This document shows positions 13,832 through 35,948 of a DNA stretch of 64,000 bases, in pieces. The DNA comes from Christensenellales bacterium. GTDB lineage: Bacteria > Bacillota > Clostridia > Christensenellales > Aristaeellaceae. The translations under genes and the position numbers were made by a program. The stretch is from the NCBI GenBank assembly GCA_045112195.1, contig JBGUHQ010000008.1, positions 14,285-78,284 on the forward strand. The letters run 5' to 3'. Positions within the stretch are counted from its first letter, which is position 1. Every line of letters begins with the position of its first letter. Below the pieces are notes generated by a model. It had not been told where the DNA came from and made no database searches. It worked only from the letters and a program-made list of their open reading frames with translations.

Positions 13832-14920
13832 ATGAATGCGCTGAAGATCATACGGAATTATTTCTTCTATTGTGGGATCGAAAAAGACGAATACAATGCG
13901 CTGAAAAAAGATGCGTATGTTTCGAACTATAAAATCTGGCGGGTTCTCCATTTTCTGATGGCGGCCGTTTTCGGGCTGCTGTTTGCCTTTTCGTTTGCCA
14001 GCGACCTGCTGGCCCTGAACCGGGTTTTCTACCTGGCCGCCCTGGTTTATTCCGTTGCCGCTATCGCTCTTTTCGGATGCCTGAGGAAAGAATCGATTCT
14101 CGCCCAGTTCCTGATTTATCTGTCCATCTCCCTGCTGTTTCTGTTCGGCTGCGTGATTTCCCAGAACAGGCCGGACAGTCCTGCCGTCACATTCATCGCA
14201 TTTTTGCTGATTACGCCGATGTTTATGATCGATAAGCCCTTTTTCATGGCTTTTGAGCTGATTGCCGCGTCCGCCGTGTTCCTGGGCTGGATGCACGGCG
14301 TCAAACCGCCCGAAGTCTGGCAGATTGATTTCGGCAACGTGGTGACGTTCACTGTGGTCGGGATCTTCCTGAATATCATCGCCAACGCGATCCGCATCAA
14401 GGAATTCGTGCTGACCCGGGAAATCAATGTCCAGAAAGATACGGACGAAATGACCGGACTGAAAAACAAGGGCGCACTGACCAGGGAGATCAATGAATAC
14501 CTGGCGCATGCTTCTGCCGGCAAAGGCGTTATGTTCCTGCTGGATATCGATCGGTTCAAGTCGATCAACGATACATATGGCCACGACGTCGGGGACAGCG
14601 TCATCAGCCGGTTCGGCAGTTTCCTCAGGGACAGGTTTACCGACCGCGAAATTGTCGGACGCTTCGGAGGGGACGAGTTCATCGTCTTTTTCAGGGACGG
14701 GGACAGTCCTGAAGAAGCCTGCCGGATCGCGGAGGGAATCATCTCAGGAGCAGCGGAGAACGTCGTGCTGCCGGACCGGAAAGAAGGGATCAGCGTCAGT
14801 ATCGGCATCGCCGTGTGCGACGGCAGTGAAAAGAATTATTCGGACGTGTTCAAAAAGGCCGATACTGCCATGTACAGGTCGAAAGCTGACCTGGATAGGA
14901 GAATCCATCTGTACGAATAA
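13832..14920 (+). CDS. membrane-bound diguanylate cyclase (GGDEF domain)
   Basis: About 6 N-terminal TM helices, then RFGGDEFIVF and the DIDRFKSINDTYGH motif. Confidence 0.85.
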   Translation: MNALKIIRNYFFYCGIEKDEYNALKKDAYVSNYKIWRVLHFLMAAVFGLLFAFSFASDLLALNRVFYLAALVYSVAAIALFGCLRKESILAQFLIYLSISLLFLFGCVISQNRPDSPAVTFIAFLLITPMFMIDKPFFMAFELIAASAVFLGWMHGVKPPEVWQIDFGNVVTFTVVGIFLNIIANAIRIKEFVLTREINVQKDTDEMTGLKNKGALTREINEYLAHASAGKGVMFLLDIDRFKSINDTYGHDVGDSVISRFGSFLRDRFTDREIVGRFGGDEFIVFFRDGDSPEEACRIAEGIISGAAENVVLPDRKEGISVSIGIAVCDGSEKNYSDVFKKADTAMYRSKADLDRRIHLYE

Positions 14921-14964
14921 CCGGCCGGAGAGTTGCAGAACGAACAAAATACATCCGAAATGTG

Positions 14965-14993
14965 TTGACAATCGCCCGGGAAGGGCGTAAACT
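14965..14993 (+). promoter_or_regulatory. promoter of the T-box leader
   Basis: TTGACA-17 nt-TAAACT. Confidence 0.45.
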
Positions 14994-14999
14994 CCCGTT

Positions 15000-15257
15000 A
15001 AAGGCCTTGAAGGAGAGGGGTCCAGGGTTCGGCGTAAGAGACGCGGCGGTCGGTGCGAGCCGCGGGAAGAACCTGGATGCTGTCGCTCCCGAGCCGGAAG
15101 GAAGAAAGCGGAGACGCGAGTAGAGCCTTCCCGAACCAGCCGCGTAAGGGCAATGGACCTGCTGGGGTCCGTGAGTGGCGGAGGAATCCGCAATTTGAGT
15201 GGTACCGCGGGCAATATTCATGCTCGTCTCAAAGTGTTTTGAGACGAGCATTTTTTT
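15000..15257 (+). promoter_or_regulatory. T-box riboswitch leader (tRNA-sensing transcription attenuator)
   Basis: Stem I carries the AG bulge (AAGAGA, 15046-15051) and the distal loop (GGTGCGA). The conserved T-box sequence is gaGTGGTACCGCGgg at 15197-15211. The antiterminator (TTTGAG / bulge TGGTACCG / CGGGCA..TGCTCG / CTCAAA) is mutually exclusive with the terminator ATGCTCGTCTCAAA-gtgt-TTTGAGACGAGCAT-TTTTTT at 15220-15257. Confidence 0.75.
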
Positions 15258-15262
15258 AGCAA

Positions 15263-15346
15263 GGGATCCCTCGGCTACGCTCGGGATGACACCGCTGCGG
15301 CGGGGGAGATTTCTCCACGCGGCCTTCGGCCTTGGTCGAAAAGACA
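15263..15346 (+). repeat. mosaic REP-like dispersed repeat, copy A (modules 1+2)
   Basis: GGGATCCCTCGGCTACGCTCGGGATGACA + CCGCTGCGGCGGGGGAGATTTCTCCACGCGGCCTTCGGCCTTGGTCGAAAAGACA. Module 2 recurs at 39452-39509 and module 1 at 36057-36112. Confidence 0.6.
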
Positions 15347-15382
15347 GACAGGGATGGGATGACATAACAGGAGGTCTGGAAC

Positions 15383-17680
15383 ATGGCGCAGATGACAGGA
15401 TTGAATTACAAGATCCAGGAGATGGCTCACCGGATCCGGGAGCTGCGGGAGATCGAGAACTTCACGATCGCTGAAATGGCGAACAAGACGGGCGTTACGG
15501 AGCAGGAGTATATCGACTGCGAGATGGGCCGGTCGGACCTGAACTTCGCGTTCCTGTACCGCTGCGCCCTGGCGTTCGGCGTTGACGTCGGCGATATCAT
15601 CGAGGGTTCCAGCCCGAACCTGAACTCCTTTACCGTTACCCGGCGGGGCGAAGGCCAGCGCATTGAGGAAGCCCACGACATGGTGTATTACAACATGGCG
15701 GCTTCCTTCCGGAACCGGATCGCGGAACCCCTGTATGTGCAGGCGGCCTACAGCGCCGAAGCCGAGAAGGAGGATATCAAGCTGACCACCCATGAAGGGC
15801 AGGAGTGCGATATCGTCATCGAGGGCCAGCTGAAGGTCCAGGTGGGCGAGCACATCAGCGTGCTGAACCCCGGCGATTCCATCTATTACGACTCCGGCAC
15901 GCCCCACGGCATGATCGCCGTGGGCGGCGAGGACTGCCTGTTCTACGCGATTGTCCTGAACCCGACCGGCGCCCCGATTCCGGAACTGACCCCCGAAAAG
16001 GCCATGCCCGGCACGGCCCTGCAGGAGTTCCCGGCGGAGAACGGCCGGACCCGCGTGTGGCACCGCTACGCCGACGTGGAAAAGGACGAGAACGGCACGC
16101 CGGTGAAGATCGAATTCAAGAATACCGAAAAGTTCAACTTCGCCTTCGACGTGATCGACGCGATCGCCGAGGAAGTGCCGAACAAGCTGGCCATGCTGCA
16201 CCTGGACCGGGACCTGAACGAACACCGGTTCACCTTCAACGACCTGAAGCGTGCGTCCAACCGCTGCGCGAACTACTTCAAATCCCTGGGCATCAAAAAG
16301 GGTGACCGGGTCATGCTGGTGCTCAAGCGGCATTACCAGTTCTGGTTCTCCATCCTGGCCCTGGAGAAGATCGGCGCCATCGCCATTCCGGCCGTGGCCC
16401 AGCTGCAGGAACATGATTTTGAGTACCGCTTCAATGCCGCCGGCGTGAAGGCCATCATCTGCACCGCGGACGGCGACACAGCGCACCAGGCGGAACTGGC
16501 CGCAAAGGACGCGCCCTGCCTGGAACTGAAGCTGATTGTGAACGGCACCCGGGAAGGCTGGCATACCTTCGACGAGGAATACCAGATGTATTCCACCCAC
16601 TTCAACCGCACGGACGACACGCCCTGCGGCGACGACCTGATGCTGATGTACTTCACCTCCGGCACGACGGGCTATCCCAAGATCGCCGCCCACAGCTACA
16701 AGCATCCCCTGGGCCACCTGCATACGGCCAAATACTGGCACTGCGTGAACCCGAACGGCCTGCACTTGACGATCTCCGACACGGGCTGGGCCAAGGCCGG
16801 CTGGGGCAAGATCTACGGCCAGTGGCTGTGCGAAGCCGCGATCTTCGTATACGACTTTGACCGCTTCGACGCGGCGACGATCCTGCCGCTGTTCGCGAAG
16901 TACCATATCACGACCTTCTGCGCGCCGCCCACCATGTGGCGGATGCTGATCAAGCAGGACCTGAGCAAGTACGACCTGAGTTCCGTGACCCACGCTTCCA
17001 GCGCCGGCGAAGCGCTGAACCCGGAGGTTTACCGCCAGATCGAGCTGCAGACCGGCCTGCAGGTCATGGAAGGCTTCGGCCAGACCGAAAGCACCATGAT
17101 CATCGGCAACCTGGCCGGCGCGGATCACAAGCTGGGCTCCATGGGCAAGGTGGCTCCGATTTATCATGTGGAGCTGCTGGATCCGGAAGGCAATCCTGTG
17201 CCCGCCGGTACCCCGGGCGAGATTTGCGTGGATATTTCCAAAGGCATCCCGATCGGCCTGTTCCAGATGTATTACCGGGATGAGGAAAAGACGAAGGAAG
17301 TTATGCACGACGGCTGGTACCACACCGGCGACCTGGCCTGGTGCGACGAGGACGGTTTCTACTGGTACGTGGGACGGGCGGACGACGTGATCAAGTCCAG
17401 CGGCTACCGCATCGGGCCGTTCGAAATTGAGAGTGTGATCATGGAACTGCCCTACGTGCTGGAATGCGGCGTCAGCGCCGCGCCGGACGAGGTCCGCGGC
17501 CAGGTGGTCAAGGCGAGCATCGTGCTGACCAAGGGCACCGAAGGCACCGAGGAACTGAAGAAAGAGATCCAGAATTACGTCAAGCAGCATACCGCGCCGT
17601 ATAAGTATCCCCGGATCGTCGTATTCCGGGATGAACTGCCCAAGACTGTATCCGGCAAGATCCAGAGGGCGCTGCTGTGA
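15383..17680 (+). CDS. XRE-HTH / cupin / AMP-forming medium-chain acyl-CoA synthetase fusion protein
   Basis: N-terminal HTH (FTIAEMANKTGVTEQEYIDCEMG) and a cupin (GDSIYYDSGTPHGM). ANL adenylation motifs follow: YFTSGTTGYPK, GFGQTE, YHTGD, GRADDVIKSSGYRIGP and PKTVSGKIQR. 765 aa. Confidence 0.85.
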   Translation: MAQMTGLNYKIQEMAHRIRELREIENFTIAEMANKTGVTEQEYIDCEMGRSDLNFAFLYRCALAFGVDVGDIIEGSSPNLNSFTVTRRGEGQRIEEAHDMVYYNMAASFRNRIAEPLYVQAAYSAEAEKEDIKLTTHEGQECDIVIEGQLKVQVGEHISVLNPGDSIYYDSGTPHGMIAVGGEDCLFYAIVLNPTGAPIPELTPEKAMPGTALQEFPAENGRTRVWHRYADVEKDENGTPVKIEFKNTEKFNFAFDVIDAIAEEVPNKLAMLHLDRDLNEHRFTFNDLKRASNRCANYFKSLGIKKGDRVMLVLKRHYQFWFSILALEKIGAIAIPAVAQLQEHDFEYRFNAAGVKAIICTADGDTAHQAELAAKDAPCLELKLIVNGTREGWHTFDEEYQMYSTHFNRTDDTPCGDDLMLMYFTSGTTGYPKIAAHSYKHPLGHLHTAKYWHCVNPNGLHLTISDTGWAKAGWGKIYGQWLCEAAIFVYDFDRFDAATILPLFAKYHITTFCAPPTMWRMLIKQDLSKYDLSSVTHASSAGEALNPEVYRQIELQTGLQVMEGFGQTESTMIIGNLAGADHKLGSMGKVAPIYHVELLDPEGNPVPAGTPGEICVDISKGIPIGLFQMYYRDEEKTKEVMHDGWYHTGDLAWCDEDGFYWYVGRADDVIKSSGYRIGPFEIESVIMELPYVLECGVSAAPDEVRGQVVKASIVLTKGTEGTEELKKEIQNYVKQHTAPYKYPRIVVFRDELPKTVSGKIQRALL

Positions 17681-18147
17681 TCGACTCCAGCCTCTGCTAT
17701 CTGTACCGCGGCGGCGACGTCCTGATGATGCACCGGACGCGGAAAAAGAACGACATGAACCACGACAAGTGGATCGCTGTCGGCGGCCGCTTTGAGGCGG
17801 GAGAAAGCCCGGAGGAATGTGCCCTTCGCGAGGTGAAGGAGGAAACCGGGCTGACCATGCTGGATCCGTGCTACCGCGGCGTAGTCACGTTCATCAATGA
17901 CCAGTACGAAACGGAACGGATGCACCTGTTCACCTGCGAAAAGTGGAGCGGGGAAATGACCGACTGCGACGAGGGTGAACTGGTCTGGCTGCCGAAGGAA
18001 CAGATGAACGAACTGCCCATGTGGGAAGGGGACCGGATCTTCCACCGGCTGCTGGACGAAGGCATTCCGTTCTTTGGGCTGGAACTGGTCTACAGCGGGG
18101 AGAAACTGCTGTCAGCCGTACTAAATGGTAAACGATTGCACATTTAA
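17677..18147 (+). CDS. Nudix hydrolase (MutT-like)
   Basis: Nudix box GGRFEAGESPEECALREVKEETGL. GTG start overlaps the upstream TGA (GTGA). Confidence 0.8.
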   Translation: MIDSSLCYLYRGGDVLMMHRTRKKNDMNHDKWIAVGGRFEAGESPEECALREVKEETGLTMLDPCYRGVVTFINDQYETERMHLFTCEKWSGEMTDCDEGELVWLPKEQMNELPMWEGDRIFHRLLDEGIPFFGLELVYSGEKLLSAVLNGKRLHI

Positions 18148-35783: not shown

Positions 35784-35791
35784 AAAAAAAG

Positions 35792-35864
35792 CAGCTCCGA
35801 CGGGATTCGAACCCGTGTTTCAGCCTTGAGAGGGCCGCGTCCTAGGCCTCTAGACAACGGAGCC
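35792..35864 (-). tRNA. tRNA-Glu (anticodon CUC)
   Basis: Reverse complement GGCTCCGTTGTCTAGAGGCCTAGGACGCGGCCCTCTCAAGGCTGAAACACGGGTTCGAATCCCGTCGGAGCTG folds as a cloverleaf. Anticodon loop CT-CTC-AA. TPsiC loop GGTTCGAATCC. No encoded CCA. Confidence 0.9.
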
Positions 35865-35877
35865 AGAAAAAGAAAAG

Positions 35878-35948
35878 CTGGGGAACTAGGATTCGAACCT
35901 AGACAATACGAGTCAGAGTCGTAGGTGCTGCCGTTACACCATTCCCCA
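35878..35948 (-). tRNA. tRNA-Gln (anticodon CUG)
   Basis: Reverse complement TGGGGAATGGTGTAACGGCAGCACCTACGACTCTGACTCGTATTGTCTAGGTTCGAATCCTAGTTCCCCAG. Acceptor TGGGGAA/TTCCCCA. Anticodon loop CT-CTG-AC. Confidence 0.9.

Follow-up and report, generated by a model that had tools for sequence, protein, structure and literature searches.

A tRNA-Val-type T-box leader ahead of a predicted branched-chain acyl-CoA ligase in a Christensenellales bacterium and related Clostridia

The DNA examined here is a 64,000-nucleotide stretch of a Christensenellales genome (GenBank assembly GCA_045112195.1, contig JBGUHQ010000008.1), referred to below as the window, in which a promoter, a T-box leader RNA and two overlapping genes follow one another on the forward strand. 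The first gene encodes a fusion of an XRE-type helix-turn-helix (HTH) domain, a cupin domain and an AMP-forming acyl-CoA synthetase, and the second encodes a Nudix hydrolase. A sequence-only reading of the window had recognised a T-box at 15000–15257 and had proposed that it switches on the salvage of branched short-chain fatty acids for valine or leucine synthesis. The elements that it named are all in place, including the UGGU bulge and the 14-bp terminator that competes with the antiterminator, and the leader is backed by a full-length match to the Rfam T-box model RF00230 and by covariation among orthologues; the two downstream genes are likewise as described, the fusion by its Pfam domains and the Nudix gene by a GTGA overlap. 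Below we describe the leader, its orthologues and the genes that accompany them in related genomes, and weigh what this arrangement would mean for the supply of valine.

The promoter ahead of the leader is the only promoter-like site detected in a scan of positions 14600–15600, and a TTGACA box stands at an equal distance in every orthologous leader. RF00230 matches positions 14998–15234 of the window from end to end (model positions 1–219 of 219) with 77.2 bits under a permissive filter, at E = 5.3e-17 in a local search and E = 5.7e-15 over the whole window, where the same search found no further T-box at E < 1e-3. The specifier loop is closed by pairing of CUCC (15086–15089) with GGAG (15012–15015). 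Further downstream, AAUUUGAGUGGUACCGCGGG at 15192–15211 is the conserved T-box sequence with its UGGN bulge, the core of which (TGGTACCGCG) occurs once in the window against a chance expectation of 0.12 matches, and the UGGU at 15200–15203 is the predicted partner of the tRNA NCCA end. The 3' arm of the antiterminator (15223–15233) doubles as the 5' arm of the terminator, and since positions 15220–15233 are common to both structures, the two are mutually exclusive.

To this architecture the orthologues add strong comparative evidence. In an alignment of 49 orthologous leaders (alignment A1, used for both covariation and the consensus fold), the canonical T-box pairing is realised in 97.4% of cells, as against 35–50% with slid partners, and 30 of 46 pairs show compensatory changes; none of 500 shuffles reached the observed values. 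At the base of Stem I, the alignment pairs 14–16/114–116 and 23–26/107–110 covary and are 97.5–100% paired, while the helix closing the specifier loop is paired in every leader, with compensatory changes at three of its four pairs. Antiterminator helices 9 and 10 are 99% paired, and the AG-bulge and distal-loop columns are conserved.

Table 1. Coordinates of the leader elements and genes in the window
Feature	Position	Strand	Detail and basis
Sigma-70-type promoter	14965–14993	+	-35 TTGACA 14965–14970, 17-nt spacer, -10 TAAACT 14988–14993
T-box leader (Stem I, Stem II, IIA/B region, Stem III, antiterminator/terminator)	14998–15257	+	RF00230; covariation in 49 orthologues
Stem I base, 5' side	15003–15015	+	GGC, K-turn UGA-A, GGAG closing the specifier loop; covariance-model alignment
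AG bulge AGAGA (15037–15041) and distal loop GGUGCGA (15052–15058)	15037–15058	+	Covariance-model alignment; tRNA-elbow platform
Specifier GUC (Val, 15082–15084) and purine G (15085)	15082–15085	+	Covariance-model alignment; orthologous column
CUCC, 3' strand of specifier-closing helix (15086–15089), and CGAGCC, 3' half of K-turn/base	15086–15095	+	Covariance-model alignment
F-box-like element CCGCGUAAGGG	15140–15150	+	
T-box sequence and antiterminator	15192–15233	+	Helix A1 UUUGAG/CUCAAA, bulge UGGUACC, helix A2 GCGGG/CUCGU
T-box core UGGUACCGCG	15200–15209	+	
Intrinsic terminator	15220–15257	+	14-bp stem (15220–15251), 4-nt loop, U7; terminator scan, also in consensus fold
Ribosome-binding site AGGAGG	15369–15374	+	8 nt upstream of ATG; read from sequence
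765-aa HTH-cupin-acyl-CoA synthetase fusion	15383–17680	+	Pfam, NCBIfam and PDB matches
Nudix hydrolase gene	17677–18147	+	GTG start overlaps ligase TGA (GTGA)

The 3' side of the specifier loop reads UGCUGUCG (15078–15085), with GCU-GUC-G at 15079–15085 followed by the CUCC of the closing helix. For this position GUC (Val) followed by a purine had been put forward, with CUG (Leu) as the alternative. We read the specifier from the column homologous to 15082–15084 in a MAFFT alignment of 68 leaders, where it is GUA in 62, GUC in five and GUG in one; the following base is a purine throughout (G in 59, A in nine) and the preceding base varies (U in 64, C in two, A and G in one each). An invariant GU with a wobbling third base and a free base ahead of it marks the specifier as that of valine. 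The variable base before GU, the A, C or G in third place and the invariant GU rule out the CUG (Leu) and UGU (Cys) frames, and a +1 frame in the Val leaders would read UAG or UAA stop codons. Extending the set to 74 leaders before the same clade of ligases left the picture unchanged, with GUN in every one (GUA 68, GUC 5, GUG 1), so that the survey of orthologues found T-boxes before the ligase gene, the valine assignment stands and the leucine alternative falls. A scan across the relatives' loci yielded 123 leaders, all of which carry UGGU, and the earlier argument from this bulge to a discriminator A was correct. That 14998–15257 is a functional valine T-box is, in our judgement, nearly certain. 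The RNA mechanism itself is that of an ordinary T-box; the newness appears to lie in the regulon.

The gene that follows combines, by Pfam, HTH_19 (aa 17–73; 33.5 bits, cut-off 30.2), Cupin_2 (aa 131–190; 48.8 bits, cut-off 27.2), AMP-binding (aa 262–617) and AMP-binding_C (aa 681–759), with both N-terminal domains over their thresholds in the XRE-HTH-then-cupin order of PuuR-like regulators. Weak PDB matches to the HTH-cupin module were 1Y9Q, 9K3W and 1V70. The remainder (aa 248–765) is an AMP-forming acyl-CoA synthetase of the Macs/MbcS type, whose closest solved structure is MacsMa (3ETC; 592 bits over aa 248–763 in a PDB search) and whose best NCBIfam model is MbcS (NF047394, 437.7 bits). 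Two hallmarks of Macs enzymes appear in the alignment to 3ETC, namely Gly in place of the pocket Trp of Acs (FGQTES in the window protein, FGQTET in MacsMa) and the alternative Trp in KYW (aa 450–452), which is KYW in MacsMa as well. In MacsMa, which prefers 2-methylbutyrate, Gly replaces Trp416 of AcsMt and Trp259 is the alternative pocket Trp, with the roles of these residues described by the same authors (PMC10455477). MbcS of Staphylococcus aureus acts selectively on 2-methylbutyrate and isobutyrate and handles isovalerate poorly (PMC10026030), a selectivity that matches the finding of only Ile and Val leaders among the relatives (see below). We describe the ligase as one that would work like MbcS rather than one that is MbcS, and its similarity and context make it probable that it is a CoA ligase for branched short-chain acids that prefers isobutyrate and serves valine supply.

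A scan of species-representative genomes found the fusion in at least 591 of them, at about 70% identity. Carriers include Acutalibacteraceae, Oscillospiraceae, Ruminococcus, Christensenellales-like and other Clostridia, mostly as metagenome-assembled genomes (MAGs) from rumen and gut; those most closely related to the window are rumen isolates and MAGs, and the nearest named organism is Aristaeella hokkaidonensis (96%). For comparison we used 80 loci from related genomes (labelled from L001), among which TGGTACCGCG lies 80–270 nt upstream of the ligase gene in 68 of the approximately 75 loci with upstream DNA.

What lies downstream of the Val-linked ligase in these relatives gives the leader its metabolic context. 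Gene calls by tblastn in the 62 loci with at least 3.5 kb beyond the ligase placed there a P-loop NTPase (48 loci) and the VorB (48), Vor-beta (43) and Vor-gamma (40) subunits of 2-oxoisovalerate:ferredoxin oxidoreductase (VOR), together with a class IV (branched-chain) aminotransferase (39). The block is co-directional with intergenic gaps of 4–20 nt, and the P-loop gene starts 4–20 nt past the ligase stop codon. VorB reaches 536 bits (NF005507 cut-off, 399), Vor-beta and Vor-gamma carry TPP_enzyme_C and POR domains, and a 68-aa open reading frame for a 2x[4Fe-4S] delta subunit precedes VorB in all 36 loci checked. By its gene content, this dominant cluster would activate a short acid, convert the acyl-CoA into a 2-oxo acid by ferredoxin-dependent carboxylation, and transaminate the latter. 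The P-loop NTPase (220 aa) sits between the ligase and VOR delta (in L040, about 12–680 nt past the ligase stop); it resembles CbiA/ParA proteins weakly, matches no NCBIfam model, and may serve VOR in maturation or Fe-S delivery. By eye, a gene of about 260 aa that looks like a carbon-nitrogen hydrolase was also seen between ligase and aminotransferase in L030, L048, L053, L054, L056, L073 and L078.

A further line of evidence comes from duplication of the ligase itself. In 42 loci a second HTH-cupin-ligase paralogue lies directly upstream with its own promoter and T-box, giving the tandem order Ile-leader, ligase 1, Val-leader, ligase 2 (among L007–L079, for example L017:1090–3990 and L072:823–3990); the specifier of the paralogue's leader is AUC (Ile) in 46 of 46 cases. 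A serine reading of these leaders (UCN, +1 frame) was considered, since AUC is followed by A, C or G, and was dropped on the grounds of frame homology with the Val leaders and the canonical position rule. Specifier and protein clade agree in all 118 nearest-neighbour tests, none of which crosses between groups, and the window ligase belongs to the Val-linked clade. A Leu/isovalerate member of the family was not found in the relatives' loci. Leaders with CUC (Leu) occur only in L038 (minus strand, near 680) and at L079:9620–9900, before a leuA-like (HMGL-type) gene, and such a leader beside the ligase-VOR cluster is an ordinary Leu T-box. Four loci (L022, L030, L033 and L056) have no internal leader, their two ligase genes lying 10–50 nt apart; we considered leader loss at a free-standing gene in these cases and rejected it, as the genes adjoin. 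In L033 a single Ile leader stands ahead of both ligase genes.

Our best explanation of the locus, to which we give a probability of roughly 75% on sequence and genomic context, is that a tRNA-Val T-box controls an isobutyrate-CoA ligase for valine supply. On top of the observed architecture, specifier, gene content and linkage to VOR and aminotransferase genes in relatives, we infer the substrate, the way the flux runs and the response to tRNA as follows. Transcripts begun at the promoter would pass through a transcription-attenuating riboswitch (14998–15257). With tRNA-Val charged, the terminator would form and transcription would stop; uncharged tRNA-Val would pair through its anticodon with GUC and through its NCCA end with UGGU, stabilising the antiterminator and allowing read-through into the ligase and Nudix genes. 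The ligase, an AMP-forming short branched-chain acyl-CoA synthetase and most likely an isobutyrate-CoA ligase, would yield isobutyryl-CoA for reductive carboxylation by VOR and transamination to valine, so that valine starvation would switch on isobutyrate salvage. The flux is taken to be anabolic because the ligase is AMP-forming and would be induced by uncharged tRNA. Rumen anaerobes are known to form valine from isobutyrate and isoleucine from 2-methylbutyrate (Allison and Peel 1971; Robinson and Allison 1969, as cited in PMC7356843). The branched-acid salvage proposed by the sequence-only reading is thus strongly backed for valine by the context (the Ile paralogue, the VOR and aminotransferase genes, and the likeness to MacsMa and MbcS), and its leucine or isovalerate branch found no evidence.

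Several observations weigh against this explanation. At 77.2 bits the window leader falls short of the RF00230 gathering score of 93 bits and goes unlisted in a default Rfam scan, so that the covariance-model check of the T-box came out mixed, with a full-length, highly significant match below the threshold and orthologues that pass it: the Val leaders of L017 (100.2 bits) and L072 (95.6 bits) exceed the cut-off, as do three Ile leaders (L072, 103.4; L033, 101.1; L010, 96.1 bits). The window specifier loop lacks the usual GAA (GCU instead, 15079–15081) and has AGGG for AGUA on its 5' side (15016–15019). The MbcS score lies far under the equivalog cut-off of 850, which leaves the ligase outside that equivalog. 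By tblastn, the window has neither a VOR subunit nor an aminotransferase, a P-loop gene or another copy of the fusion, and it carries a Val-type unit only; the neighbouring VOR that the sequence-only reading had suggested looking for is accordingly missing here and is found in the relatives instead. About 14 of the 62 genomes have a stand-alone T-box-ligase unit followed by genes that, by eye, seem unrelated to the pathway. In the tandem loci (e.g. L017:3696–10292), VOR and the aminotransferase sit behind the Val leader only; isoleucine starvation alone should therefore not read into VOR unless the Val terminator is leaky, an arrangement that is odd if isoleucine synthesis also needs VOR. Finally, this account gives the conserved HTH-cupin module no role. 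As to the loop, GAA and the 5' AGUA are missing across this T-box clade, with UUU in most relatives (columns 100–102 of alignment A1), which suggests a non-canonical specifier-loop geometry in the clade, and many of its leaders fall below the Rfam cut-off, probably because their loops lack these motifs. That cut-off is a working threshold; the window leader is a GC-rich, diverged orthologue, and its low score is probably explained by the GCU and AGGG deviations together with 61% G+C. For the window's own organism, the step from isobutyryl-CoA to valine would rest on orthology, and we hold it with less confidence than the explanation as a whole.

The sub-threshold score, together with a spacer between terminator and gene that is unusually long in the window's lineage, could be taken to mean that the leader has decayed and that the ligase is expressed constitutively from another promoter within the 125-nt spacer. 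This seems very improbable: all functional elements are intact, the structure covaries over 49 species, the leader is kept in more than 70, the promoter at 14965 is the sole candidate in the scanned region, and promoter scanning and folding found neither a second promoter nor a structured element in the spacer, whose folding is not significant (z = +0.54 for 15252–15400). A more serious contender keeps the same switch and ligase and has the acyl-CoA prime branched-chain fatty-acid synthesis for membrane lipids, low valine meaning few isobutyryl-CoA primers. It draws on MbcS as the best NCBIfam model, since the role of MbcS is such priming (PMC10026030), and on the ligase standing without VOR in the window and in the 14 or so stand-alone genomes. 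We nevertheless consider it unlikely, because the ligase shares its operon with VOR in 48 of 62 loci and with the aminotransferase in 39, because inducing these enzymes degradatively under valine starvation would waste valine, and because the pairing of amino-acid-specific paralogues with amino-acid-specific T-boxes is most simply read as amino-acid supply; the lipid and valine fates are in any case compatible rather than mutually exclusive.

The N-terminal module invites another account, in which the fusion is mainly a regulator, a BirA-like trigger enzyme whose DNA binding is set by the acyl-adenylate, the acyl-CoA or a cupin ligand, with the T-box setting the level of a factor that re-programmes branched-chain amino-acid metabolism. 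Not only do HTH_19 and Cupin_2 both exceed their Pfam cut-offs, but the module is conserved within each paralogue group much like the catalytic domain (identity 0.63–0.74 vs 0.73–0.78) and diverges between groups far more than the ligase domains do (0.45–0.58 vs 0.69–0.87). Sixteen positions discriminate the groups at 90% or more, of which 12 fall at aa 11–117 and four in the ligase (A470G, A485G, M572L, G575A); aa 1–241 of the window protein (15383–16105), with the orthologous segments, form the part that differs most between the Val- and Ile-linked paralogues. Position 470 comes right after the conserved DTGW and is Gly in MacsMa as in the Ile clade, which would fit a larger pocket for a C5 acid in that clade. 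A purely regulatory role nonetheless appears rather improbable, given an intact and highly conserved catalytic domain and the lack of a conserved operator-like palindrome near the relatives' promoters, where the search turned up no more than an A/T tract 5' of the -35 box; such a role would in any event add to the enzymatic one rather than replace it. The relatives' promoters are strong (TTGACA and an extended -10), and a T6-N-A6 tract (TTTTTTCAAAAAA-like) lies directly 5' of TTGACA in many first promoters, among them those of L015, L016, L023, L027, L064 and L006, and not in the window promoter; it may be a UP element or an operator.

Alongside the valine-supply explanation, we would tentatively entertain the idea, itself more doubtful than probable, that the fusions are bifunctional trigger enzymes that activate isobutyrate (Val clade) or 2-methylbutyrate (Ile clade) and also sense, through their N-terminal part, the end product or substrate of their own branch, acting by DNA binding or by allosteric gating of the enzyme. 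If this were true, salvage would be under two stacked amino-acid-specific controls, the T-box reporting tRNA charging and the protein domain a small molecule, and the specifier codon could serve as a natural label for the ligand specificity of the sensor domain across more than 590 species.

Compared with the branched-chain T-boxes of other Firmicutes, such as those of valS, ileS and ilv-leu in B. subtilis, the leaders described here belong to the same RNA family and share its mechanism (a Stem I with K-turn, a specifier followed by a purine, the distal platform, the UGGN bulge and the antiterminator opposed to a terminator) and its logic, by which uncharged tRNA induces genes for the supply of the cognate amino acid. 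They differ in that the target here is an acyl-CoA ligase, joined in relatives by VOR and an aminotransferase and pointing to volatile-fatty-acid salvage, in that the specifier loop lacks GAA and AGUA, and in that Val and Ile leaders alternate within one gene cluster in relatives. MbcS, the closest curated family, is AMP-forming, and its selectivity for isobutyrate and 2-methylbutyrate mirrors the occurrence of Val and Ile but not Leu leaders; unlike the fusion, it has no HTH-cupin extension and feeds lipid synthesis instead of amino acids. To our knowledge, T-box control of MbcS has not been reported. MacsMa of Methanosarcina acetivorans, the nearest structure, has in common with the fusion the alternative Trp and the Gly that stands where Acs has Trp416, but is a stand-alone archaeal enzyme without a regulatory N-terminal module or a riboswitch. 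BirA, the biotin protein ligase and repressor of the bio operon, may serve as an analogue, being an adenylate-forming enzyme with an N-terminal HTH whose DNA binding is controlled by its reaction intermediate; its catalytic fold is unrelated and its HTH is winged rather than XRE-type, so the comparison remains one of analogy.

That rumen and gut anaerobes need or use isobutyrate and 2-methylbutyrate for valine and isoleucine has been known since the 1960s, which is also why dairy cattle receive branched-chain volatile fatty acids in their feed. We know of no assignment of the genes or regulation of this route in Clostridia. The carboxylations of isobutyrate and 2-methylbutyrate described by Allison and co-workers (as cited in PMC7356843) represent the same predicted chemistry in the same habitat, with the relatives' operon encoding the corresponding activation, ferredoxin-dependent carboxylation and transamination; that work consisted of labelling and enzymology in other organisms. 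A literature search for T-boxes in combination with acyl-CoA synthetase, isobutyrate, 2-methylbutyrate or ketoisovalerate ferredoxin oxidoreductase returned no prior description, though an earlier passing mention is possible, and such targets are absent from the T-box reviews and databases that we examined. What appears to be new is thus the regulon, in which charging of tRNA-Val and tRNA-Ile would control paralogous CoA ligases for branched acids, together with VOR and the aminotransferase in most lineages. It supplies candidate genes and a candidate regulator for a biochemically known pathway (two ligases, VOR delta, alpha, beta and gamma, the aminotransferase and the P-loop protein) across more than 590 species, with the T-box specifier acting as a built-in functional label of the amino acid that each paralogue would serve. 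The regulatory logic, in which tRNA charging would govern fatty-acid salvage, would widen the T-box regulon from synthetases, de novo biosynthesis and transport to salvage from fermentation products. Such assignments would improve metabolic models of gut and rumen Clostridia as well as predictions of their auxotrophies, and the pathway is now directly open to enzymology, labelling and reporter assays.

The Nudix box of the second protein is normal, and NCBIfam places the protein in no specific family; a CoA-pyrophosphatase signature was not noticed in it. Through the GTGA overlap its gene is predicted to be translationally coupled to the ligase, an arrangement that recurs in L001, L002, L004 and L005, the closest relatives of the window, and is lineage-specific. 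The flanking genes in the window are unrelated, with a gene for a GGDEF protein upstream and one for a GT2 glycosyltransferase downstream. The former, a diguanylate cyclase gene at 13832–14920 (+), ends 45 nt upstream of the T-box promoter, and no terminator was detected between the two in the scan of 14600–15600. The window contains no tRNA-Val gene; genes for tRNA-Glu(CUC) and tRNA-Gln(CUG) are adjacent at 35791–35948 (-). At 56151–56198 (+) it also has a match to the Rfam family DUF3800-XI RNA (RF02975) that, with 39.1 bits, lies just over the gathering score of 37.8.

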